Made by a program: the position numbers and the translations under genes. Under the pieces are notes generated by a model. It did no database searches and had not been told where the DNA came from. It saw only the letters and a list, made by a program, of their open reading frames with translations. From positions 780,001 to 812,000 of the forward strand of contig JAXLZO010000001.1 of NCBI GenBank assembly GCA_046350815.1: DNA of 32,000 nt. Direction: 5' to 3'. This document shows positions 86-31,130 of the stretch, one piece after another. Numbering within the stretch: the stretch's first letter is position 1; each line of letters opens with the position of its first letter. Source of the DNA: Candidatus Saccharimonadota bacterium (GTDB taxonomy: Bacteria; Patescibacteriota; Gracilibacteria; BD1-5; UBA2023).

Positions 86-124
86 ATCGGTCCCTTCCAT
101 TGAGAATAAAAAAAGGAGCTCAAT

Positions 125-517
125 ATGAGCGTGATATTTACACTTGAAACGACAGGAATTTCCCAAGGGGATGCTGAGGAGATACTCAGGGAGTTCCATC
201 AGACGATTGTCTCTCATGCTCAGTCTCTGGGTACGGGCTCTACTATTGTCATCAAGGGGCTTCGATTTCAACGCACAGGTGAACTGCAGATGTCGCCGAT
301 CAACTTGCTTCGGTCTTCTTCGTTTTTCTCACAAGATTCATATTGTGGAGAATCCATCATGACGAATCTTGATGTGCAAATTATAGCTGAGACACTTCGG
401 GAAATTCTTGTTTATCACCATGCACTTGGTGGTGGTTGGATCAAGATTGTCGGACAGGAACCATTTAAAAAAGGTGCCGGTTGGCTTCTCTACGAGTCAT
501 CACCATCGGTGCTGTGA
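125..517 (+). CDS. hypothetical protein (130 aa if UGA 515-517 terminates)
   Basis: ATG 125 is preceded by AAGGAG (113-118) with 6-nt spacing. No family recognised. The only stop is TGA, which is a sense codon elsewhere in this window. Under table 25 the frame stays open into ilvE. Confidence 0.45.
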   Translation: MSVIFTLETTGISQGDAEEILREFHQTIVSHAQSLGTGSTIVIKGLRFQRTGELQMSPINLLRSSSFFSQDSYCGESIMTNLDVQIIAETLREILVYHHALGGGWIKIVGQEPFKKGAGWLLYESSPSVL

Positions 518-534
518 AATTTGGTTTCGAGTCA

Positions 535-566
535 ATCCCACCGCTTGTGGTGGGATTTTTCTTTGT
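535..566 (+). terminator. intrinsic terminator hairpin
   Basis: ATCCCACC (535-542), loop GCTTGT, GGTGGGAT (549-556), then a T-run. Confidence 0.6.
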
Positions 567-2069: not shown

Positions 2070-2786
2070 GGGTCTAGACTAGCAAATTTTTAAAAATAGC
2101 TTTTTTTGCGAGTCTGAAATTTTTATAATTGTATCGAAATTCGCACTCTTTCAAATGAAGATGAAATTTATCTGGGGCAATCCCATTAAACTTTGCCATT
2201 CTTCTTTTGCAGAAACTCCAGAAAGATTCAATACCATTCACATGATTCTTTCCTCTGGCAAACTCATTCTCACTGTGAAATACCCTATAGTGATCATATC
2301 CATTTAAAACAAGAGAATCATATGCTTTCCATCCATCCGTATAGATGGTAGATCATTCCAGTATTTTCCCATGAATAATTGGCATAAGTTCACTTCTGGA
2401 GCAGTTCTCTACAATACTTACAAATACTCTTCCATCTCGCTTGAGAAGTCCAAACACTGGTGTTTTTCCTGCAGCTCACCTTCCTCTTTTTCATCTAACC
2501 CGACGAGCACCAAAGTAACTTTCATCCAGTTCAAATTCTCATCAGAATTCATACCTTTCTTTGAAACTCTTTGATTCCTCAATGGAAATTCGCACAATAG
2601 CCTCTCGAAATCGGTTATACCAAAGATTCACACTATTACGATTTATCCCCATAATTTTTGCTGTCTGAGTAGCAGTAAAATCCTCAAAAAAATAGTAAAA
2701 AATTCTTCAAATTTTATAAGTCGATAATTTTGTCTATTTGATCATAAGCAAATAGTGTAAGAAGTACTATTTGCTAGTCAAGACCC
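2070..2786 (-). mobile_element. IS1595-family insertion sequence (717 bp, IS1016-like size)
   Basis: Terminal inverted repeats GGGTCTAGACTAGCAAAT (2070-2087) and the reverse complement of 2769-2786, GGGTCTTGACTAGCAAAT (17/18 match). Flanking 7-bp direct repeat TGTCTTG at 2063-2069 and 2787-2793. Encodes a single DDE transposase. Confidence 0.9.
2074..2652 (-). CDS. IS1595-family DDE transposase (192 aa from the first ATG)
   Basis: Minus-strand frame with 5 in-frame TGA, all at Gly positions. It reads ..ELDESYFGARRVR-G-KRGR-G-AAGKTPVFGLL..STIYTDGWKAYD..HVNGIESFWSFCKRR. Stop is TAG at 2074-2076. An HTH-like segment (EDFTATQTAKI) lies upstream of the first ATG but has no canonical start, so the N-terminus is uncertain. 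Confidence 0.85.
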
Positions 2787-2870
2787 TGTCTTGTTTTCTT
2801 CTTCGAAATATGCTCTCTTAGGAGTTGATATGGAAGATCCTGAATCAAGTTCAGGATGACGATTTTTTGT
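2787..2870. repeat. repeat cluster A, right part (split from the left part by the IS)
   Basis: Begins with the TSD copy TGTCTTG and contains 28-nt hairpin copy 2. Confidence 0.7.
2833..2860 (+). repeat. 28-nt hairpin repeat, copy 2
   Basis: Exact copy, followed by GATTTTTTG. Confidence 0.85.
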
Positions 2871-3067
2871 CTATCATCTCCTTTCACAACCCTTGACATA
2901 TCTACTAATATTGACGCCTCTGCACACATGGCTACACTTGGCATCAGTTCAAAAATATATCCCCTCCAGGAGAGGGGATATATAGCACTCTCTCAAGAAT
3001 CCTAAAACAAAAAAATGCCAAATATACGTAAGAAAGTGAAAACGTGAAAAAATAATTAAAAATCTAC

Positions 3068-9099: not shown

Positions 9100-9455
9100 G
9101 GAAAATCTCCGACTTATCGCGTTAGTGCGATGCACTGGATTGCTGAAACTCGCTGGATCAAGTTCGAAATGACAAACTTTTGTCATTTCGACTATTGGGA
9201 GAAATCCCTTATAGTTCTGTTTTTGGTGGTAGTTTTTTGTATCAGAGATCTCCCCTAACGTCGAGATGACAGAATGTGGTAAAGAGAGATCCCCGCCTCC
9301 GCGAGGATGACATATTTGATTCAAAGAAATACAACTGAGATTGTTAGTGCGTCATGGTGGTGTGCGACCAAATGAAGTCCAGCGAGTGTAACGAGTCGGG
9401 GGATGCCTTTTGTGAAGAGAAGTGGAAGATCCTGAATCAAGTTCAGGATGACGCT
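9100..9455. repeat. mosaic palindromic repeat cluster C
   Basis: Contains TCGAAATGACAAA-CTT-TTGTCATTTCGA, GATCCCCGCCTCCGCGAGGATGACA (9288-9312, identical to 1846-1870), a GCGACC..GAAGTCCAGCGA..GAGTCGGGGGA unit, and 28-nt hairpin copy 3. Confidence 0.8.
9425..9452 (+). repeat. 28-nt hairpin repeat, copy 3
   Basis: Exact copy. Confidence 0.85.
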
Positions 9456-9696
9456 TTGTTTTATATTTTATCTGTCACTCCCGTTATACGTAAAGTATAT
9501 ACATAAAATTGAAAATCACTGTAATAACAGCGGATGAAGGAGTGTATTTATAATGAATAAAAGATGATAGAAAAATGCTGTCAATACTTCTTTTCGACAT
9601 GGGAGAGTTATTATGATAGACTGATAATAATTCTTCGAAATATCTATGTCATTTCGCACCAATTGGCAAAATTTTCGCTCAACAATGGAGCCTCAT

Positions 9697-11859: not shown

Positions 11860-12370
11860 GATAGCTCCCCCTAGCCCCCTCGTTGAAGGGGAACAGGGCA
11901 AAAGAGATTTCTTGTTGGGTAAGATTTTGTATTCTATCCCCTTGATAAGGGGGACAAAAGGGGGTTTGCATTCTTCCCCTCTTGAGGGGTGGCACGCAGT
12001 GACGGGGTGGATGTATTCCCGTATCCTCTTTGGTGATAACTCCTTATACAAGGGATATCTCCATACGTCGATATGACAAATACAGAATGCAAAGAGGACA
12101 AAATCACTACTCCCTCAGCAAGGATGACAAAATATATTTCTAGGACTAAGTGGAGGTAGTATTTCTTCCCCGAGGGGTGCCGTAGAGGCTGTTGGTGCGA
12201 CCGAAGGAAGTCCAGCGAAGTGCACAGTCGCACTGAGTCGGGGGATTGTATTTGAGAAAAGTTAAGGAAGATCCTGAATCAAGTTCAGGATGACAGAATT
12301 AATGCAACTCCTCCTTATTTTTGTTGTCCTGTTCCCCCTCGTTGAGGGGGCTAGGGGGAGTTGTAGTTTT
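11860..12370. repeat. mosaic palindromic repeat cluster D
   Basis: Shares modules with clusters A and C. TTCTTCCCCTCTTGAGGGGTG..GGGGTGGATGTATT (11971-12017) matches 2021-2063. The GCGACC..GAAGTCCAGCGA..GAGTCGGGGGA unit (12194-12246) is also present. Includes 28-nt hairpin copy 4. Confidence 0.8.
12267..12294 (+). repeat. 28-nt hairpin repeat, copy 4
   Basis: Exact copy, downstream of the cyclase gene. Confidence 0.85.
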
Positions 12371-12451
12371 CTCCAATATATGAGATCTTTCCTTTGTTTG
12401 ATATATTGGTACAATATCTTCTGACAATTGAAAGAAAGAAGGGGGATTGTC

Positions 12452-12553
12452 ATGGGTAAATTCATTCTATTCATTATTCTGTTGTGCATTTGGCCACCAC
12501 TTGGAATTGCATATCTCATCTGGCTTGCATTCTTTAAAAAGTCCTCCGAGTGA
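12452..12553 (+). CDS. small hydrophobic protein (33 aa if UGA terminates; 54 aa to TAG 12614-12616 under table 25)
   Basis: Strong SD AAGGGGG 6 nt before ATG 12452. Sequence MGKFILFIILLCIWPPLGIAYLIWLAFFKKSSE. The TGA at 12551-12553 sits inside a terminator hairpin. Confidence 0.45.
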   Translation: MGKFILFIILLCIWPPLGIAYLIWLAFFKKSSE

Positions 12554-12568
12554 GGACTTTTGCTTTTC
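12538..12568 (+). terminator. intrinsic terminator
   Basis: AAAGTCCTC (12538-12546), loop CGAGT, GAGGACTTT (12552-12560), then TTTTGCTTTT. Confidence 0.6.
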
Positions 12569-12727
12569 AAATCAAAAAGAGCGAGAATATTTGCGCTTTT
12601 GTTATGAGTATGCTAGGATAATAGAGGGTTCCCCATTTTCACAGGATATTTATTGTAAAAAATGAATATCACACTTCAATAAAGATGCTCATCGTAAGGA
12701 ATGAGTATCATCTTCGAGGGTTTGACC

Positions 12728-13105
12728 ATGAAAGCATTGAAATTTATTCTTGTTTTTCTCCTTGGTGTTGTCGCCGGTGTTGTAGGGTTGTTCTTCGTTT
12801 TGGCGTTTAGTGATGAATCTCAAAATGTTGATACGAAGCCGGTAACGACGGCTATATCAGTCAAGCAGGAGGCTTGCTTGATGAGCGCTGCTGAACAAGC
12901 TCGGGATATCTATAACGAACTTGCTGTGCGTCGCGGCAACATCGGTACGAAAATGGAGTTTAAGCGTGTTAGTCAAAAAGAGCTGGCAGTAGAAGATGCA
13001 GTTAGCCAAAAGCTCTACGCTCTTGCTGGTTCCTTTATGGAGCCGTGCATTGTGTATGAGGAACCTGTGAAGCTGGATCGCACTGTCCTCGCGGACATTC
13101 GCTGA
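12728..13105 (+). CDS. hypothetical signal-anchored protein (125 aa; the longest ORF starts at 12701)
   Basis: SD GAGGG 7 nt before ATG 12728. N-terminus MKALKFILVFLLGVVAGVVGLFFVLAF. The only nearby stop is TGA 13103-13105. Under table 25 the frame runs to TAG near 13280, crossing a terminator and the next gene's start. Confidence 0.5.
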   Translation: MKALKFILVFLLGVVAGVVGLFFVLAFSDESQNVDTKPVTTAISVKQEACLMSAAEQARDIYNELAVRRGNIGTKMEFKRVSQKELAVEDAVSQKLYALAGSFMEPCIVYEEPVKLDRTVLADIR

Positions 13106-13124
13106 TTCTGCTCACTCCCATTGA

Positions 13125-13153
13125 GACTCGCATGAAAGTGTGGGTCTTTTTTT
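13125..13153 (+). terminator. intrinsic terminator
   Basis: GACTCGCA, loop TGAAAG, TGTGGGTC (8 bp including 2 G-U pairs), followed by T7 at 13147-13153. Confidence 0.6.
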
Positions 13154-13218
13154 GACTTTGTATGTAAAATATGGTCTACTGATAACGTGATGTATTGAGA
13201 AAATAAAAGGGGGTATAT

Positions 13219-13425
13219 ATGTCATTCCTCACAGCTCTGATTGCTCTGATTGTTGGAGTGATCGCCTTTGTGTTGATAGTGAGAGTATTTGTCTTTTTGA
13301 TAAAACCTCTCATACATTGCTTTATCTTTGGGATTTTGGTAATGGTTCATCCATGGCTTGGTGCGATATATTTGTTATGCATTGTATATCTCATTATTCG
13401 GTGGATCATCAAAAAGCTCTCTTAA
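13219..13425 (+). CDS. small two-TM hydrophobic protein (68 aa)
   Basis: SD AAGGGGG 5 nt before the ATG. Intact ORF ending in TAA, which lies in the loop of a hairpin. Confidence 0.55.
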   Translation: MSFLTALIALIVGVIAFVLIVRVFVFLIKPLIHCFIFGILVMVHPWLGAIYLLCIVYLIIRWIIKKLS

Positions 13426-13440
13426 GGGAGCTTTTGCTTG
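13414..13440 (+). terminator. hairpin terminator candidate
   Basis: AAGCTCTC, loop TTAA, GGGAGCTT, followed by TTTGCTTG. Confidence 0.45.
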
Positions 13441-13531
13441 CAAAAAGAGAATTTTCTCTATAATAACGACGTCTTAATGACATGGGAGCTTCACCTTTTA
13501 TGAAGCGTTTGTACCAAGTAATTTCTTTTTT

Positions 13532-14218
13532 ATGGCTTTTCACGGCAAAAAATACCGCAAAGCGGTCGAGCTCGTAGATCGAACTCGTAAATATTCTCTC
13601 GAAGAGGCAGTATCTCTTCTTGAACGAACAAACACTGTTAAATTTGATCCAACTGTTGAGATCCACTTCAATCTCGCTATTGATCCAAAATACGCTGATC
13701 AAATGGTTCGCTCAACTCTTACTCTTCCTCATGGAACTGGTAAAGCTCCGAAAATTGGTGTATTCACTGAACAAGGAAACGAAAAAGAGCTCATGGCACT
13801 CGGTGCGGTGATTGCTGGTGGTGATGATCTTATCGATCGTGTTGCTGGTGGAGAGATCGGGTTTGATGTTGCGATCGCTACCCCAAATATGATGAAGAAA
13901 ATGGGTAAGGTTGCTCGTGTTCTCGGTCCAAAAGGTCTCATGCCAAATCCAAAGGCAGGTACGGTTGGTGAGAATCTTGAGGCAATCGTAGCAGAACTCA
14001 TGGCTGGTAAATTTGAATTCAAGAATGATAAGCAAGGAAATGTTCACTCGGTTGTAGGAAAACTTTCATTTGGTCAGGATAAGGTTCGTGAAAATATCAC
14101 TGCATTTATTGCAAAGATTCGTGAAGTGAAACCGGCAGGTATCAAGGGTGGTCAGTATATCAACACTGTTTTTGTGGCAAATGCCATGGGTCCTGGAATT
14201 CAAATCAGTATTGACTAG
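13532..14218 (+). CDS. rplA: 50S ribosomal protein L1
   Basis: Intact 228-aa ORF with typical L1 sequence: KFDPTVEIHFNLAIDPKYADQMVR..LPHGTGK..DVAIATPNMMKKMGKVARVLGPKGLMPNPKAGTV. Stop is TAG. Confidence 0.95.
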   Translation: MAFHGKKYRKAVELVDRTRKYSLEEAVSLLERTNTVKFDPTVEIHFNLAIDPKYADQMVRSTLTLPHGTGKAPKIGVFTEQGNEKELMALGAVIAGGDDLIDRVAGGEIGFDVAIATPNMMKKMGKVARVLGPKGLMPNPKAGTVGENLEAIVAELMAGKFEFKNDKQGNVHSVVGKLSFGQDKVRENITAFIAKIREVKPAGIKGGQYINTVFVANAMGPGIQISID

Positions 14219-14242
14219 TACGGAGAAATAAACAAGTTTTTG

Positions 14243-14271
14243 AAAATATCACAGTAATGTGGTATTTTTTT
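14243..14271 (+). terminator. intrinsic terminator after rplA
   Basis: AAAATATCAC, loop AGTAAT, GTGGTATTTT with one G-U pair, then a T-run. Confidence 0.5.
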
Positions 14272-14313
14272 GAACAAGAAATAGACATTCTTTTATCTTT
14301 TTGTACACAAAAT

Positions 14314-14341
14314 TTGATACCCGTTTCATATTGCTTATAAT
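14314..14341 (+). promoter_or_regulatory. sigma70-like promoter candidate (TTGATA-16 nt-TATAAT)
   Basis: -35 at 14314-14319 and -10 at 14336-14341, upstream of ftsA. Confidence 0.4.
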
Positions 14342-14456
14342 ACGCTTGTTCTTGAGACGGAGAATAGAGCCGAGTAAATGAATATTTCCTTTGTAAAAGC
14401 TCAGTATCTCGTACTCAATTTGTATACAATTTATTATCCATTCTGTGAACAATGAA

Positions 14457-15674
14457 ATGATCGCAGCCATAGATGTTGGCTCTTCGCGTATCAAAGCTAT
14501 GATCGCTACATTTAGTGAATCTGGCAGTATGCGAGTTCTGGGTGTTGGGACGATACCTTCACATGGTATCCGACGATGATCCGTTATGGATATGGAAGAG
14601 TTTAAGAAAGACATTGATGCTGTTCTCTCTGAGGCAGAGAAGATGACTGGTACTACGCCCGTAGGGCTGGTGACTATCGGTGTCTCTGGTTCACACATCG
14701 AGTGCTTTGAATGATCCGGAACGATAGCTATTCCGACTGGGGAAGTGGGTGAGGATGATATTCATCGCGCTCTCGATATTTCAACAACAGGTTTGGATGT
14801 TGCGAATCGTGAGATACTCAAAGTGATGCCTCGTCATTATATGATTAATATGGTTGACGAGATCAAAAATCCACTCGGTATGGCCGCCAAGAATCTTGAG
14901 TCATCGACTCAAATATTCACCGGATCACGAAATATACTCGGCAATATTCGCAAAGGTATCGGTGATGTTGGTGTTGAAGTGCTCGATGTTATCCCGAATA
15001 TTATTGCATCACCTGAGGCAATCCTCGGGAGCCGACAAAAAGAGCTTGGGGTTGTAGCAGTTGATATTGGTCATGCAGCAACCAATATGAGCGTCTATGA
15101 AAATGGAGCTCTCCTTTATTCCGCAGTCATTCCTATTGGGGGTGAGCATGTGACTTCTGATATTGCCATTGGTCTACGTATCTCGATTGATCTTGCGGAA
15201 CGAGTAAAAATTGAGAATGCGAATGTGGGTCTAAATACAGGCGATCAGCCTGATATAGAAATCGATCTCTCAAAATTGAGTAAAGCCGAAGATCAGATTG
15301 TATCTCAATCATATATTTCTGAGATTGCTCGCGCTCGCTATGAAGAGATACTTTTTCATATATCCAATAATCTTCGAAATATTGGTAAAGATGGCATGCT
15401 TCCTGAAGGTGTTGTACTCCTCGGTGGTGGTGCAAAGATGCGAGGTCTTATTGATTTGACCAAAGCCCGCATGCGTCTTCCAGCAAGTCTTTGAGTACCT
15501 CGATCAGAAGAATTTATTGCTGGTACATCGATTGCAGATCCATCCTATGCTTCACTTCTTGGAGTAATTATTCTCTCTCGTAAGTACGCACGACAATCCA
15601 ATAAAAAAGTATCATTTCAATTTGATAGCTGGATGCAATCAGCAAAATCTCTTTTTTCTAAACTTCTTCCATAA
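14457..15674 (+). CDS. ftsA: cell division protein FtsA
   Basis: Frame 3 from ATG 14457 ([15 protein letters not shown]..) across 3 in-frame TGA, through the 14745..15494 fragment, to TAA 15672-15674. Actin-like motifs [16 protein letters not shown] and [14 protein letters not shown]. An in-frame GTG at 14445 is an alternative start. Confidence 0.9.
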
Positions 15675-15685
15675 TTTCTCTCTGT

Positions 15686-17017
15686 ATGTCTCCTCATAAA
15701 AAAACAGACGATCGCCTTCGTAGTATCCTTCTCAAGGATTCTTCTTCATCACGCTCTGGAGTGGAAGAAGTGATCTTCGAAGGTCATATTTCCCCAGTAG
15801 CAAAGATCAAAGTTATTGGTGCGGGTGGTGCTGGTGTCAATACGATCAATCGTATGATTGCATCAGGATATGAAGGTGTAGAGTTTATTGCAGTTAACAC
15901 TGACGCTCAGGCCCTCTATTCTTCCCAAGCACCACTCAAACTTAATATTGGACGTCAAACTACTCGTGGACTTGGTGCTGGTGCGAATCCAGAAATTGGA
16001 AAGAAAGCAGCGGAAGAATCTACCGAAGAAATTACCGAAGCACTCAGATGAGCTGATATGGTCTTTATTACTGGTGGGCTCGGCGGCGGTACCGGTACAG
16101 GTTCTATGCCAGTGATCGCGGAGATTGCAAAAGGTCTTGGTGCTCTCGTTGTCGGCGTTGTAACAAAACCTTTTACTTTTGAGTGAAATCGTCGTTCTAT
16201 GATTGCGCTTGATGGTTATGAGCGTCTCAAGGAAAAGGTAGATACTCTCATTACAATTCCAAATGATAGAATTCTTTCTATTATTGATAGAAAAACTCCT
16301 CTTCTTGATGCTTTTGGTATCGTTGATAATGTTCTTAACCAAGGTGTACAAGGAGTGTCTGACCTGATTACTCTTCAAGGTCTTATTAATGTCGACTTTG
16401 CAGATGTGCGTTCTGTTATGGCTGATGCTGGTACGGCTCTCATGGGTATCGGGTACGGATCTGGAGAAAATCGTGCGACAGAAGCGGCTCAACAAGCTAT
16501 CGACTCACCACTTCTCGAGCATTCTATTGGTGGAGCTCGAGGTCTCCTCTTCACGATTACTGGTGGACAGGATCTCTCTATGATGGAGGTTGAAGAGGCC
16601 GCTCGTATTATCACTCAGGCAGCTGACCCAGAGGCAAATATTATCTTCGGTGCAACGATCAATGATGACTATGCAGGTGAGATGAAGATTACTGTGGTAG
16701 CAACTGGTTTTGATATGCAATCAAAGAGCGATGCCTATGGTAACGGTTACAATAATAATACACGTTGATACAGTCGGCCAAGTACATCATCATCTCCTTT
16801 TACGAACACATCAAGACCAACAAGGGTCGATGTAGCTCCATCACAGGTGATGCAAGCCCCGACTCAACAGAATCACATTCAACCTTCTGTATCTCAATGA
16901 TTTGGTTCAGTACGGCCAGCAGGACAGTTTGCGGGGCAGGGAGTTCAAACTTCCATACCGGACCCTCAGGGAAATGATATTCCAGCATTTGTGCGGGCAA
17001 AAATGAATCAGAAATAA
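15686..17017 (+). CDS. ftsZ: cell division protein FtsZ
   Basis: Frame-2 fragments join across 4 in-frame TGA. It reads [17 protein letters not shown] and ..[29 protein letters not shown]. The C-terminus [13 protein letters not shown] is followed by TAA at 17015-17017. Confidence 0.95.
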
Positions 17018-22706: not shown

Positions 22707-24707
22707 TTATTTTAGACTGCCTGTACTTGTTGATCAGGTGTTTGTATTTGCTACAGTTTTTGTTCCACCTCCTGAATAGATAGTTGTACCATTCCATTTG
22801 CAGAGCACAACACTTGAGGTCGGTATGGATGGAAGATAGTTAGTACATCTTGTCAGTGCTCATGATTCAGAGATGTTGTATTCTGGGTTCCAAGCTTGAT
22901 TATTGACCCACATATCCATTTTTCCAAGAGATGTTGTAGATCATGAACTTGTTACACCCGTTGAGGTTGATCCAGCGCCAGCAGGCGTTGTTTTTACTTG
23001 TGAAAAAATTGTTTTTCCATTCCAAATACATGTAAGATACGTAGATTTTGGATCACTTTCATATTTCTTCCATGTACTTTCACATATAGCTTTAGCTTCA
23101 ATTTCAGCTATGTTATATCTTCCAGATTTATCGATAAGAAAATCGGTTTGTATAGTAAGAGTCCCAAGAGGAATTGCTCCAGTTGAGGTTGATCCAGCGC
23201 CAGCAGGCGTTGTTTTTACTTGTGAAAAAATTGTTTTTCCATTCCAAATACATGTAAGATACGTAGATTTTGGATCACTTTCATATTTCTTCCATGTACT
23301 TTCACATATAGCTTTAGCTTCAATTTCAGCTATGTTATATCTTCCAGATTTATCGATAAGAAAATCGGTTTGTATAGTAAGAGTCCCAAGAGGAATTGCT
23401 CCAGTTGAGGTTGAACTTCCTGTGCCTGCTGGTGTAGCTGGAGTTGTTGGCTTTGGTGTGGTTGTAGTTGTAGTACCAGTGTTAGTTACTACTCGCGTTC
23501 CATACCCCTTTGAAAGCTCTTTCGTTCCATTCCAGACGCAGGAAAATTTACTACTTGCAGGAAATCGTGACGCGAGCTCTGCACAGTAGTTAATTGCCTC
23601 TTTTTCATTGAGCTTGTAGGTATTGTAGATATCTGGTTGATTTTTACCATCAACTGTGACAGTGATACTCGCAAGTACATCCGCTGGTTTAGTTGGAGTG
23701 ATAACACCACTTGCAGTAGATCCTGTATTTACGGGTATTTTTGGTACAACTACTGTTCCAGTAGAGATTGATCCACTATTTGATGATGAAGGTTTTGTCT
23801 TTGAAAAAATTGTTTTTCCATTCCAAATACATGTAAGTTGTGTAGACTTTGGATCATTTTCATATTTTCTCCATGTACTTTCACATACAGCTTTAGCTTC
23901 AGTCTCAGCTATATTATACCTTGCAGACTTATCAATAGAAAAATTAGTATTTATAGTAAGCGTACCAAGAGTTATTGCTCCAGTTGATGTTGAGCTTCCT
24001 GTGCTTACTGGAGTTGCTGGTTTTGGTGTGGTTGTAGTACCAGTGCTAGTACCAGTTACCACTTTTGTTCCGTATCATTTAGATAATTCCTTTCCGTTCC
24101 AAATACATGAAAATTTACTGGTTGTTAGAACAAGCTTTGCATACTCTGTACAGTAGAGATTTGCATATGTTTCACCGAATTTAGATGTATTGTAGAAAGC
24201 AGGCTGATTTTTACCATCAACTGTGATAGTAAGACTTGCAAGTACATCCACTGGTTTAGTAGGTGTACTTGGACGAATCACTACTTCACCGGAAATACTT
24301 GGTGTTGGTACCACTCATCTTGAGAAAATTTCAACTCCATTCCATGTACAACGAATATTACTGTTCATGTTATTCGCTGAATTTTGTTTGCAGTTTGAAT
24401 ACGCTTCCTCCTTTGTAATGCTCGCAGTTGAGATAAAGAGTCGACCATTCATAAAGCCTTCATATTTTCATTTGTTTGTAACAATAACCTCGCCCGAGAT
24501 ACTTGGCTTTGATGGAGTCACACCCCAAGGATTCTTATTAATAACAGCGGGTGTAACTGGCTTTGTTGGTACACTATACATACGAGAACGAAAAATATTG
24601 GATACAAGTGCTTCTTGCATACCAGGATTCGCGAACATAAGTACGCTACCAACACTGATGACACCAAGTACTCATGAGAGTATCATGGTAGATTTTTGCA
24701 TTTTCAT
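22707..24707 (-). CDS. secreted repeat protein with seven two-cysteine '..C.WNG' modules (666 aa), uncharacterised family
   Basis: Minus-strand frame from ATG 24707 to TAA 22707-22709 contains fragments 24075..24314 and 22941..24062 and 7 in-frame TGA. N-terminal signal/anchor MKMQKSTMILS-G-VLGVISVGSVLMFA. Modules of about 55-60 aa are separated by T/P/S/G-rich linkers. Confidence 0.8.
22960..23403. repeat. perfect tandem duplication, 2 x 222 bp (one 74-aa module plus linker), in frame within the repeat protein
   Basis: 22960-23181 is identical to 23182-23403, and identity continues 11 nt into a third unit. A diverged (not perfectly matching) copy lies at about 23790-24010. Confidence 0.95.
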
Positions 24708-24820
24708 AGAGAAAAAAACAAGATATAAAAAAGAAAAGCATGAATGAAGAGGGGAATATCCCTTCAAATCAGGATTATGCTATCCTATTATTTCTTGTTT
24801 GTCGAAATTTATGAATTGAC

Positions 24821-26553: not shown

Positions 26554-27573
26554 ATGTCAGAAAAGCAAGTCATCATCGATCAAATTGTTCAAGTATTTCG
26601 TGATTCACATCGAATCCTTTTCACTGCGGGTGCAAATCTTGATGGTGATGCTTTTGGGTCGCTCCTAGCTCTCGATGAGGTTGCTCGGTCTCTTGGGAAG
26701 GAGACTTGTATCCTCAATGAGAAATCACTCGATTCATATTATTCGTTCATTCCAGATCATACTCCGATAGTTCCTCTTATTCCAGATGGATTCAACCCAG
26801 ATCTTATTGTGATAACCGACACAGGAGATCTTGGTCTGCTTGGGAAGATATGTCAGCAATATTTGTCAATTTTTCAGAGTATACCAATAGTAAATATTGA
26901 TCATCATTCGACGAATACAGAGTTCGGAACATACAATCTTATTGATGTGAGTGTTTCATCTGCATGTGAGTTGACTGCAGAGGTAATCGAGGCGATCATT
27001 CCAGAGACGCAAAATGCATGTTTTAGCAAAACATTGAGCTCTTATCTCATGCTTGGGGTTTTCTATGATACGAATTGTTTTCGTAATCAGAATACGAATG
27101 CAAAGACTTTTGCATTTATGAGCCGTCTCCTTGCGTGTGGTGCCTGTTATTTTACCTTTGTAAAACACCTCTACAAATCTCGATCTATTTCAGAGATGCG
27201 ACTCTATGGGCATCTTCTGGATAACGCTATTGTATATGGAGATAATGGCGCTGTTGGCTGTATTATTGATCAGGCAACACTTCTTAAATACGGCGTGAGT
27301 GAAGATTCACTCGCCTCTGTGTTTAATAATGAGTTTCTCTCGACGATTCTTTGCGATTTTTCTTTCGTCGTCAAAGAATCTGATGATGGTCGTTATAAGA
27401 TAAGCCTCAGGACAAGTAAGGATGGTTATGACGTATCGCGACTTGCACAGATGCTCGGTGGTGGTGGCCATGTGAAAGCGGCAGGGGCAATCACAACGAA
27501 GTCGCTTCCTGAAATTTTGAATATTATCGAAACATACTACTATACATGGCAGACAGAGAAAAATCGAATATAA
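26554..27573 (+). CDS. nrnA: DHH-family phosphoesterase (NrnA-like oligoribonuclease/pAp phosphatase)
   Basis: Intact 339-aa ORF. DHH motifs DGDAFGS, ITDTG and NIDHH. DHHA1 motif GGGGHVKAAG. Confidence 0.8.
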   Translation: MSEKQVIIDQIVQVFRDSHRILFTAGANLDGDAFGSLLALDEVARSLGKETCILNEKSLDSYYSFIPDHTPIVPLIPDGFNPDLIVITDTGDLGLLGKICQQYLSIFQSIPIVNIDHHSTNTEFGTYNLIDVSVSSACELTAEVIEAIIPETQNACFSKTLSSYLMLGVFYDTNCFRNQNTNAKTFAFMSRLLACGACYFTFVKHLYKSRSISEMRLYGHLLDNAIVYGDNGAVGCIIDQATLLKYGVSEDSLASVFNNEFLSTILCDFSFVVKESDDGRYKISLRTSKDGYDVSRLAQMLGGGGHVKAAGAITTKSLPEILNIIETYYYTWQTEKNRI

Positions 27574-29866: not shown

Positions 29867-30166
29867 TTAAATCCAAACAATAATTTTTATGTCATTGCCA
29901 ATTTCAATGTTCTCATTTTTCCTTATTTTAGCTTTGAGTGGAAGCAAATAAGTTTTGTGTTTAGTGTCAAACCATATTGCTGTTTCCCATTCGCTATTTC
30001 CAATTTTTGCTGTTGCTTTCAGTCGTCCCCAACCTTCTTCCTGCCATTTCAAATTTTCTCTAATTTCCGTTGATATTTCAATCGGAAGTGAAACGAAGTG
30101 CCAACCGCTTGGCGATGAATATTGCCAAGTCTTTGCTGAAAATTCATATTTTATTTTTCCATTCAT
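29867..30166 (-). CDS. DUF1905 (YdeI-like) family protein (99 aa; the longest ORF starts at 30217)
   Basis: MNGKIKYEFSAKTWQYSSPSGWHFVSLP..GWGRLKATAKIGNSEWETAIWFD..YLLPLKAKIRK. No TGA codons. The gene and its flanks look visibly more AT-rich than neighbouring genes. Confidence 0.7.
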   Translation of the reverse strand: MNGKIKYEFSAKTWQYSSPSGWHFVSLPIEISTEIRENLKWQEEGWGRLKATAKIGNSEWETAIWFDTKHKTYLLPLKAKIRKNENIEIGNDIKIIVWI

Positions 30167-30284
30167 TTGTCTGTTTTCTGTGTCCGTTCTACAATGACCG
30201 CTAACATGTAAATTCACGCAATGATTATCTTGTTTTTCCTTGCAGAGTCTATATTATTCGTCTAATATATTTCTATATGAAGTT

Positions 30285-31130
30285 ATGCGAATATATAAGA
30301 CTCAAAAAGAATCTGTATGAGCTTTTTGAGATTGGCTCACTCTCAAAAGATATTCTCCAAAAACACACAAAACATATTTGAGTGTACTCAATATGTTTCT
30401 GAAAGAAATATCTATAACAATATCAAAGATACAAAGAAATGATATTGAGGAGTATTTGCAACATAAAATCCAAAATGGACTCTCAGTATCGAGGCATAAG
30501 CAATTAACCTGAGTATTGAAGTTATTTTTTTCTCGTTTTTTAGAAAGACAAGATATTATCTGGGATGAAATGTATCCAGAAAAATGAGAAACCAAGCTCC
30601 CAAATATTCTCTCAAAGTCAGAAGTAAAAAAACTTCTCGATACACTCAATAACGTCAAGCATAAAACTATCCTTACGCTGATATATGCCACATGAATGAG
30701 ACTCTCTGAATGTGTGAATCTTCAAATTGGTGATATTGATTCAAAAAGAATGACCATCAAGATCCGACAAGCCAAAGGAAAGAAAGATCGATATGTGCCA
30801 CTTTCCCCAAAGCTTCTCGATCTTCTGAGAGTGTATTATCGGGAATATCATCCAAAACAATATGTATTTGAATGATGAGAATGATGAATCTACTCGGAAC
30901 GAAGTGTGCAACAAATTATGAGGCAAGCATTGAACCGAGCATTGATTACCAAAAAAGCATCGGTGCACACACTCCGTCATAGCTATGCGACACACCTTCT
31001 GGAGGATGGGGTAGACGTACGCATTATCCAAGAATTTCTGGGGCATAGCCATATACGAACGACCCAAATATACACCCATATTAGCACTCCAATTCTCTCA
31101 AAGATAAAAAGCCCACTGGATGATTTATAG
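30285..31130 (+). CDS. tyrosine-type site-specific recombinase/integrase (281 aa)
   Basis: Frame 3 from ATG 30285 through 9 in-frame TGA to TAG 31128-31130. N-terminal SAM-like domain. Catalytic region reads [50 protein letters not shown]. Confidence 0.88.

Follow-up and report, generated by a model that had tools for sequence, protein, structure and literature searches.

Four small open reading frames and their code-25 surroundings

The window analyzed here is a 32,000-nt stretch of contig JAXLZO010000001.1 (positions 780,001-812,000 of assembly GCA_046350815.1; all coordinates given below are window positions). It contains four small open reading frames (ORFs): a cluster of three, ORF1, ORF2 and ORF3, hereafter the islet, between the adenylate cyclase gene and rplA, and a single one, ORF125, directly before ilvE. 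Both sites are constant among the relatives of the window. Each ORF is led by a Shine-Dalgarno (SD) sequence and capped by its own hairpin terminator, an arrangement that we call a cassette (Table 1), and ORF1, ORF2 and ORF125 end at TGA, a codon that the surrounding genes use for glycine. A first-pass annotation of the window had listed the SD sequences, ORF coordinates and separate hairpin terminators of ORF1-ORF3, and all of these are present in the sequence. It had also stated that ORF1 can end only at a TGA inside its stem-loop and that ORF2 ends at a TGA shortly before its terminator, which is indeed the case, the gap in ORF2 being 17 nt. Under translation table 25, as it had foreseen, both frames run through their terminators, ORF1 to a TAG at 12614-12616 and ORF2 for a further 58 codons to a TAG at 13277-13279, over the start of ORF3. 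ORF125 is in frame with ilvE (start 608).

Table 1 Positions of the cassette features in the window
Feature	Position	Strand	Remark
SD AAGGAG of ORF125	113-118	+	6 nt before ATG
ORF125, 130-aa soluble orphan protein	125-517	+	end TGA 515-517
ORF125 terminator AATCCCACC-GCTTGT-GGTGGGATT, then TTTCTTTGTTTT	534-557	+	dG about -14 to -18; 16 nt after TGA
-10 box TACAAT of ORF1 cassette, TG two bases upstream	12410-12415	+	read from sequence
SD AAGGGGG of ORF1	12439-12445	+	6 nt before ATG 12452
ORF1, 33-aa single-pass membrane peptide (MGKFILFIILLCIWPPLGIAYLIWLAFFKKSSE)	12452-12553	+	end TGA 12551-12553
ORF1 terminator hairpin AAAAGTCCTC-CGAGT-GAGGACTTTT, tail GCTTTTC	12537-12561	+	contains TGA
ORF2 leader: invariant AGAGGGTTCCCCA, hairpins 12645-12670 and 12684-12709, SD GAGGG	12600-12727	+	
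SD GAGGG of ORF2	12716-12720	+	7 nt before ATG 12728
ORF2, 125 aa: N-terminal membrane anchor, outward-facing domain, two invariant Cys	12728-13105	+	end TGA 13103-13105
ORF2 terminator hairpin, then T-run	13123-13148	+	17 nt after TGA
SD AAGGGGG of ORF3	13207-13213	+	5 nt before ATG 13219
ORF3, 68-aa two-pass membrane protein	13219-13425	+	end TAA 13423-13425
ORF3 terminator hairpin AAGCTCTC-TTAA-GGGAGCTT, stop codon in loop	13414-13433	+	weak T-run TTTTGCTT

Relatives of the window were recovered by exact-protein look-ups and homology searches, and all of the evidence is comparative and drawn from short metagenomic contigs. Loci L001-L008 belong to the same species as the window, and at least six diverged lineages belong to the same genus (L009/L010, L012, L011, L093/L102, L094 and L100/L101); orthologues of ORF125 are carried by L095, L096 and L097/L098. 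A background set of 66 other Gracilibacteria loci, about 1 Mb of DNA, came from a scan of a genome collection with ribosomal protein L1. The L1 protein of the window itself groups in Gracilibacteria, where its nearest species representative is 77% identical. On long same-genus contigs L1, FtsA and FtsZ are 94-97% identical to those of the window, and the synonymous divergence (dS) of housekeeping genes between the window and these contigs is 0.7-1.1. Ratios of nonsynonymous to synonymous divergence (dN/dS) were obtained by the Nei-Gojobori method, pairwise between lineages.

The conserved genes of the window are fragmented under table 11 and whole once TGA is read through. All six in-frame TGAs in the ftsZ core (two) and atpA (four) align with Gly of solved (PDB) homologues, and among the relatives a Pfam match to DUF2177 runs across an in-frame TGA. 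TGA accounts for 85 of the 618 Gly codons in 19 confident window genes, and those genes stop at TAA (12) or TAG (7) but never at TGA. These alignments and stop counts indicate that the window genome uses code 25, with UGA read as Gly in housekeeping genes. The share of TGA among Gly codons is 14-19% in the clade of the window, compared with about 50% in a low-GC clade of Gracilibacteria. In published descriptions of code 25, UGA never serves as a stop and the organisms are without RF2 (PMC6851277, PMC8629427). The window encodes a single tRNA, tRNA-Leu(CAA), and related contigs have none, leaving no tRNA-Gly(UCA) on these contigs; no translation-factor genes, release factors included, occur on the window or on related contigs within reach, and rRNA is absent from the window and related loci.

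Ordinary genes in this clade also begin differently from the cassettes. Upstream of rplA, ftsA, ftsZ, atpA, atpG, ilvE and others the sequence is rich in pyrimidines or A/T and has no SD, in agreement with what the first-pass annotation had said of the conserved genes. The same holds for rplA across Gracilibacteria, where the upstream sequence is A/T- and pyrimidine-rich and none of 45 genes (L013-L078) has an SD motif. Thus, SD-led ORFs are exceptional in the clade as a whole. In published work, the anti-SD motif is less often detected only in a subgroup of Parcubacteria (PMC9297842).

The four ORFs are syntenic and present in every same-genus lineage recovered, with minor variation in gene content, and the islet arrangement recurs in independent assemblies from many samples. 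dN/dS is 0.04-0.21 for ORF1 (dS 0.7-1.8) and 0.1-0.34 for ORF3; for ORF2 (homologues P0002, P0003, P0006 and P0007) it is 0.15-0.31 in most pairs and 0.5-0.7 in the two most distant ones. Over ORF1-ORF3, dS ranges from 0.5 to saturation. The homologues of ORF125 (P0009-P0011) are 59-77% identical and 129-130 aa long. A purine-rich, GGAGG-like SD lies 5-9 nt before the start codon and is conserved among cassette orthologues: at the ORF1 position it reads AAGGAGG in L011, L100 and L102, before ORF3 it reads AGGAGG or GGGAGG in other lineages, and the purine-rich SD of ORF125 is kept in L095, L096 and L097. The TACAAT box, 30-40 nt upstream of the start codon, is identical in L094, L011, L100 and L102. 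RNAalifold supports the ORF1 hairpin with eight pairs, two of them with compensatory changes, and the ORF2 terminator with 11 pairs, four of them with compensatory changes; the ORF125 terminator, about 50 nt before the ilvE start, is kept in L095-L097. Conservation of this kind marks the four ORFs as real, fast-evolving protein genes confined to one Gracilibacteria genus.

Beyond that genus we found no relatives. All four proteins are absent from the 66 other Gracilibacteria loci. ORF2, ORF3 and ORF125 have no homologue outside the recovered contigs among 5.8 billion proteins, a profile of ORF2 finds no further match among 1.84 billion cluster representatives, and neither IMG/VR (scanned with ORF2 and ORF3 profiles) nor the genome collection (scanned with the ORF2 profile) yields a relative. 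Together with the L022 ORF described below, the four proteins give nothing significant in Pfam, PHROGs, NCBIfam or PADLOC, and scans of Rfam at gathering and E-value thresholds return tRNA and chance matches only. The three UGA-ended ORFs of the window (ORF1, ORF2 and ORF125) are accordingly SD-led orphans, as had been proposed, with no homologues outside the genus. Their composition is unusual as well. The comparison of codon usage with neighbouring genes that had been suggested sets the ORFs apart: the G+C content at third codon positions (GC3) is 0.43-0.46 in all four ORFs and exceeds that of each of 18 neighbouring genes (0.23-0.38), and their synonymous-usage scores lie at the bottom of the host range. 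GC3 is raised (0.39-0.55) in almost all cassette orthologues, the exception being one 55-aa ORF in L094. Because it is kept across lineages, raised GC3 is an equilibrium property and not a fading relic.

Evolution of terminal and sense UGA codons

Across lineages the four ORFs provide 16 distinct lineage-by-ORF ends, of which 13 are TGA, one is TAA, two are TAG and none is a sense codon. All three distinct ends of ORF1 are TGA (window, L009, L094, L011, L100 and L102), as are all four of ORF125, where the position of the codon shifts slightly (SVL*, SA*, SLV*, SE*). ORF2 has four distinct ends, three TGA and a TAG in L094, and ORF3 has five, namely TAA (window and L009), TAG (L012) and three TGA (L011, L093/L102 and L094/L100). 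The TGAs of housekeeping genes behave otherwise. Between the window and L102, the 37 sense TGA columns in cyc, rplA, ftsA and ftsZ are kept in 10 cases and replaced by GGN in 20 and by other sense codons in seven, with no replacement by a stop. Fisher's exact test of the 37 sense columns against the 16 ends gives 3.6e-7, a value that is illustrative since the lineages are non-independent.

What follows the terminal TGAs is not conserved as coding sequence, with an 8-nt indel after ORF1, a 1-nt indel after ORF2 and indels after ORF125. No lineage among the cassette orthologues has an ORF truncated by TGA with homology resuming beyond it. The homology search of the peptides that had been recommended thus found orthologues, none of which continues past the UGA with a conserved extension. 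Inside the cassette orthologues TGA is avoided altogether (0 of 112 Gly codons, about 15 being expected at the host rate), and a terminator lies 12 to about 55 nt past every terminal TGA.

The two behaviours occur side by side on the same DNA. On L095 and L096 the terminal TGA of ORF125 is followed, some 100 nt downstream, by a TGA at codon 13 of ilvE, a codon that is GGA in the window and GGG in L097. In L011 the DUF2177 gene reads AAA-TGA-TGG where L100 reads AAA-GGG-TGG, about 130 nt upstream of the TGA-ended ORF1.

Since the terminal UGA is exchanged only with TAA or TAG and never with GGN, unlike sense TGA, it is held by selection as a stop-type signal, whereas the sense UGA behaves as a freely exchangeable Gly codon. 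In terms of evolutionary behaviour, and only in those terms, UGA then has two meanings in one genome. If UGA stops translation, the predicted C-termini are E33 (ORF1), R125 (ORF2) and L130 (ORF125); the predicted code-25 read-through forms end in ...SSEGGLLLF (ORF1), ...ADIRGFCSLPLR (ORF2, junction LADIR-GFCSLPLR) and ...SVLGNLVSSQ (ORF125).

The relation of the codon to the hairpin varies among the ORFs. The TGA of ORF1 straddles loop and stem: its T closes the loop, and the 3' arm begins with its GA. In ORF3, where the window has TAA in the loop, the hairpin is elsewhere reshaped around TGA (AAGCTCTC-CCCGT-GAGGGCTT). In ORF2 and ORF125 the TGA is outside any hairpin and its flanking codons are variable. 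Two other roles for the codon were considered and rejected: frameshifting at AAA-AAG sites to a nearby TAA or TAG, as there is no nearby stop in the -1 or +1 frame, and a double-glycine C-terminus (TGA-GGN), which is not conserved because ORF3 of the window ends in TAA.

How translation of the cassettes may end

Given this pattern, we consider it about an even bet (a probability of roughly 0.5) that translation of cassette mRNAs effectively ends at UGA through a release activity, with the adjoining terminator as a fail-safe. Each cassette is self-contained: it has a promoter box and a strong SD, its frame is free of internal UGA and closes with UGA (UAA and UAG being rarer), and an intrinsic terminator coincides with the end codon or comes shortly behind it. 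At the terminal UGA the release activity would compete with tRNA-Gly(UCA); candidates are a residual or re-acquired RF2-like factor, or a codon-independent release factor of the rescue type. A ribosome that nevertheless reads UGA as Gly would reach the 3' end of the transcript within 4 to 17 codons, so that it would run off and be dealt with by ribosome rescue, and neither a long extension nor a product joined to that of the neighbouring gene would result. An inefficient ending would be offset by the strong SD. More tentatively, and with rather less confidence than in release itself, we suggest that the meaning of UGA is split by gene class: Gly in SD-less housekeeping mRNAs, stop in SD-led, terminator-capped cassettes. 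If that is true, either release at UGA takes place by an undiscovered route in an RF2-less lineage, or the lineage has both tRNA-Gly(UCA) and RF2 activity; alternatively, expression is code-conditional and the proteins are completed only when UGA termination is supplied.

Several observations weigh against termination by release. We know of no factor that releases at UGA in code-25 lineages. Housekeeping genes contain up to 13-16 UGAs, and a general activity that competes for UGA could therefore be only very weak, or else confined to one class of mRNA. The hairpin also restricts two of the three TGA bases in ORF1 and ORF3. Recombined segments are shared among the lineages, so that the counts given above overstate independence. 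A positional rule of the ciliate type was rejected, the ratio of TGA to Gly codons being 0.14 in the last 10 codons and 0.11-0.19 elsewhere, and the base after TGA does not differ between terminal and sense TGAs. The code-25 genomes published so far are without prfB (PMC6851277; bioRxiv 10.64898/2026.05.24.727570), and proteomics by Hanke et al. on another BD1-5 bacterium yielded no peptides that match a UGA-stop database alone (PMC4032931). Over the 66 Gracilibacteria loci, TGA at homologues' stops shows no excess beside terminators. Context-dependent UGA termination, one of two explanations put forward in the first-pass annotation, is borne out in part: it fits the evolutionary pattern best, but neither a separating local context nor 3'-end depletion was found.

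The survey of the 66 loci also bears on how general the pattern is. TGA stands at a homologue's stop 99 times, with no excess over other one-step neighbours of TAA (AAA 275, CAA 157). A general rule that a TGA beside a terminator ends genes was rejected, since among long code-25 ORFs that run through a strong hairpin TGA is present in 9 of the 42 that end soon after it and in 21 of the 75 in which it is internal. The absence of a general excess suggests that stop-like UGA may be genus-specific. SD-led, terminator-capped ORFs in other Gracilibacteria mostly end in TAA or TAG. One locus from a different Gracilibacteria lineage, L022, has the same cassette design: a 91-aa orphan ORF (2774-3049, minus strand) with a TTGACT…TATAAA promoter and an AAGGGGG SD ends at a TGA 19 nt before a strong terminator, and it has no orthologues in the set of loci. 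The only correlates of terminal TGA that we found are gene class and the adjoining terminator, and the pattern is concentrated in the genus of the window and in the SD-led cassette class.

An alternative that we regard as unlikely is that UGA is Gly here too. Read-through would add a short, unconstrained tail, and translation would finish by run-off (handled by transfer-messenger RNA (tmRNA) or ArfB) or at the next UAA or UAG, while TGA is retained for a reason other than termination, be it its part in an RNA structure, a slowing of decoding or its use as a processing site. Such read-through is the default for an RF2-less code-25 cell (PMC6851277). It would necessarily be short, because a terminator follows every terminal TGA so closely, and in L095 an in-frame TAA lies 8 codons past the TGA of ORF125. 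The GA of the ORF1 and ORF3 codons is paired in the terminator stem, and some housekeeping genes (rplA, atpE, atpH and the gene at 26554-27573) likewise avoid TGA entirely. However, read-through gives no reason why the ends should be restricted to TGA, TAA and TAG when 27 of the 37 neighbouring sense TGA columns became other sense codons. Nor does it explain ORF2 and ORF125, whose TGAs are free of hairpins, the one in ORF125 shifting position yet staying TGA. Moreover, tagging by tmRNA would destroy proteins that are under purifying selection. Finally, the cassettes are ill-adapted to host codon usage, so high expression does not account for the lack of TGA inside them.

Quite unlikely, in our view, is that the cassettes are tuned to translation under the standard code. 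They would be completed correctly only where RF2 activity is at hand, supplied for example by an invading phage or plasmid of the standard code, and would act as code-conditional membrane effectors; or else their expression would take place in a partner cell that uses the standard code. Everyday translation under code 25 would read through them, and the products would be discarded. Several features speak for such a setting: the SD, the -10 box, the terminator, the absence of internal UGA, the stop-type ends and the distinct codon usage are together what a standard-code, SD-using bacterium needs; TGA is favoured over TAA and TAG (13 of 16 ends), as it should be if conditional reading is important; small membrane peptides account for two of the products; and ORF2 is hypervariable and mosaic in the manner typical of conflict loci (window against L009: dS 0 in ORF1, 0.84 in ORF2). 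Yet we found no evidence of such a phage, of RF2 delivery or of gene transfer to the host, and PADLOC, PHROGs and IMG/VR gave no matches. ORF125 and ORF2 are not toxin-like, ORF3 ends with TAA or TAG in two lineages and would be unconditional there, and several unproven steps are required. One contig, L099 (GC 0.52), was considered as a standard-code reservoir of cassettes and rejected as chimeric (L099 4111-6169): the contig is 96% identical to window 12330-16020, and its composition then switches, inside ftsZ, to 64-77% GC.

The other explanation offered in the first-pass annotation, recent acquisition of standard-code genes that are still unadapted and whose TGA ends are decaying relics, is very improbable. 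The foreign-looking traits it rests on are real, namely SD usage, atypical GC3 and orphan status, with no relatives in the other 66 loci; REP-like repeat clusters adjoin the islet, and other parts of the window contain an IS1595-type transposase and an integrase. What fails is "recent" and "unadapted". The genes occupy the same sites in at least six lineages, are under purifying selection and have saturated synonymous sites, while TGA, SD and raised GC3 are undecayed and no donor homologue appears in the protein, cluster-representative or IMG/VR searches. The genes have persisted in lineages that differ by a housekeeping dS of 0.7-1.1 and so cannot count as recent imports that are still unadapted. 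Virtually no credence is due to the view that the ORFs are assembly artefacts or frames left open by chance in structured intergenic DNA: they are short orphans beside repeat-rich DNA, and L099 and probably L012 are chimeric, but the substitutions are of coding type, with dN/dS well below 1 and many synonymous changes, and the arrangement is repeated in independent assemblies from many samples.

Known systems and further elements of the window

As a family, the cassettes are fitted by none of the known systems compared here. The closest is code 25 itself, known from Gracilibacteria/BD1-5 and Absconditabacteria/SR1, which the window resembles in having housekeeping UGA at conserved Gly and ends at UAA or UAG only; unlike code 25 as known, the genus of the window has a separate gene class ending at a UGA that evolves like a stop codon. 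In the ambiguous codes of some ciliates and of Blastocrithidia, eRF1 still recognises the codon, proximity to the 3' untranslated region or poly(A) decides, and sense use is depleted before true stops. Such context-dependent stop/sense codons were reportedly found by Swart et al. 2016, Heaphy et al. 2016 and Zahonova et al. 2016, in the ciliates Condylostoma and Parduczia and in Blastocrithidia. The likeness is that one codon serves both as internal sense and as gene-end terminator within one genome, whereas the cassettes are bacterial, show no 3'-end depletion, are split by gene class and occur where the cognate release factor is probably absent.

Prokaryotes also have codons with two readings, UAG as pyrrolysine and stop (Methanosarcina and some bacteria) and UGA as selenocysteine and stop; in these the release factor is present and the sense reading is special. 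The cassettes share with them one codon with two readings and, with selenocysteine, a UGA followed by a hairpin, but in the genus of the window it is the stop-like reading that is the special case. A selenocysteine UGA with a selenocysteine insertion sequence was rejected, as there is no Rfam match, the hairpins are terminators with T-rich tails, two of them contain the UGA itself, and no conserved frame follows the UGA. In Escherichia coli, arfA is a hairpin-truncated non-stop gene whose product is released without a stop codon under tmRNA control. Its hairpin at the frame end is similar to a terminator at or inside the end of the frame, and the cassettes would be non-stop templates if UGA were read as Gly; arfA, however, has no particular end codon, while a stop-type codon is conserved in the cassettes. 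Accessory cassettes of the "moron" type and small hydrophobic type I toxins are similar in having their own promoter box, strong SD, terminator and atypical codon usage, and in being small membrane peptides with fast evolution and restricted lineages. They are unlike the cassettes in that these have no prophage context and no match in PHROGs, PADLOC, Pfam or NCBIfam. No antisense RNA was identified; the terminators were noted as bidirectional and no further antisense search was made.

We found no report in the literature of UGA as a stop in code-25 bacteria. Reassignment of stop codons in bacteria is treated as all-or-none, and the current view may be incomplete. Because annotation under code 25 assumes that UGA never terminates, genes of this kind are liable to be mis-called, that is, extended, fused to the next gene or dropped, and in Gracilibacteria gene calling SD-led small ORFs merit checking under both codes. 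If the dual meaning is true, it would be the first bacterial counterpart of the ambiguous ciliate codes and would bear on the "ambiguous intermediate" route of codon reassignment. It would also point to a missing release activity, or else to a new way of ending proteins in which transcription terminators and ribosome rescue are put to use.

Within the islet, the ORF2 leader could be a regulatory leader RNA. It has no Rfam family match, and its hairpin arms co-vary between lineages (GATATTTAT/ATGAATATC vs GTGTTCAT/ATGAACAC), as judged by eye and unscored. ORF2 starts at 12728, because the alternative ATG at 12701 is out of frame in L094 and was rejected. The second half of ORF3 is faintly similar to ORF1 (HPWLGAIYL vs WPPLGIAYL, with a common (W/H)P.LG..Y motif), and hhalign gives a weak match between the two (E 3e-4, probability 39%). 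An AlphaFold2 model of ORF125, built from a four-sequence alignment, had a predicted local distance difference test score of 49 and for that reason no fold search was based on it. The window and L009 do not differ in ORF1 or in the flanks, and their dS is 0.14 in ORF3; these values, against that of ORF2, indicate that the islet is a recombination mosaic with a hypervariable ORF2 ectodomain. In the ectodomain (12800-13060) the divergence of the window from L009/L010 is itself mosaic, with the dS of 0.84 in the middle of ORF2.

Gene content around the islet varies in several relatives. A gene for a DUF2177 membrane protein lies upstream of ORF1 at L100 4587-5027, L102 5248-5688 and L011 1-170, and also in L101; it has an in-frame TGA for Gly, a TAA stop and no SD, and it is missing from the window, where repeats take its place. 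An extra membrane ORF (MSF..GIEESHQTIVTS..) with a GAGGA SD is found at L100 5266-5415 and L094 1520-1687. It is 49 aa long where it substitutes for ORF2, in L100/L101, and 55 aa long between ORF2 and ORF3 in L094, and its stop, TAA or TAG, overlaps the SD of ORF3. The 611-nt metagenome contig L012 (1-611), on which ORF3 ends in TAG, fuses rplA codon 85 to about codon 82 of ORF2 at a common AAAAAGAGCT; the junction is probably an assembly chimera, or else a real rearrangement.

Mosaic clusters of hairpin repeats occupy intergenic DNA of the window at 1560-2050, 2800-2870, 9280-9460 and 11860-12360. Their modules include GGAAGATCCTGAATCAAGTTCAGGATGAC (4 copies), AGATCCCCGCCTCCGCGAGGATGACA, TTCTTCCCCTCTTGAGGGGTG and GTGCGACC..GAAGTCCAGCGA, and 11865-11908 and 12317-12360 form an inverted repeat of 44 nt. 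The clusters resemble repetitive extragenic palindromes and bacterial interspersed mosaic elements (REP/BIME), are without an Rfam match and vary in copy number upstream of ORF1 in L094, L100 and L102. A 686-aa repeat protein rich in Thr and Ser is encoded at 22707-24767 on the minus strand; its gene contains tandem repeats of 222 nt (22952-23395 and 23753-23974) and has a TGA 10 codons ahead of the TAA stop and terminator. Two further genes contain in-frame TGAs: an IS1595/ISXO2-type transposase gene at 2074-2652 on the minus strand (Pfam E 2e-32) and, at 29955-31130 on the plus strand, an ORF resembling a tyrosine recombinase.

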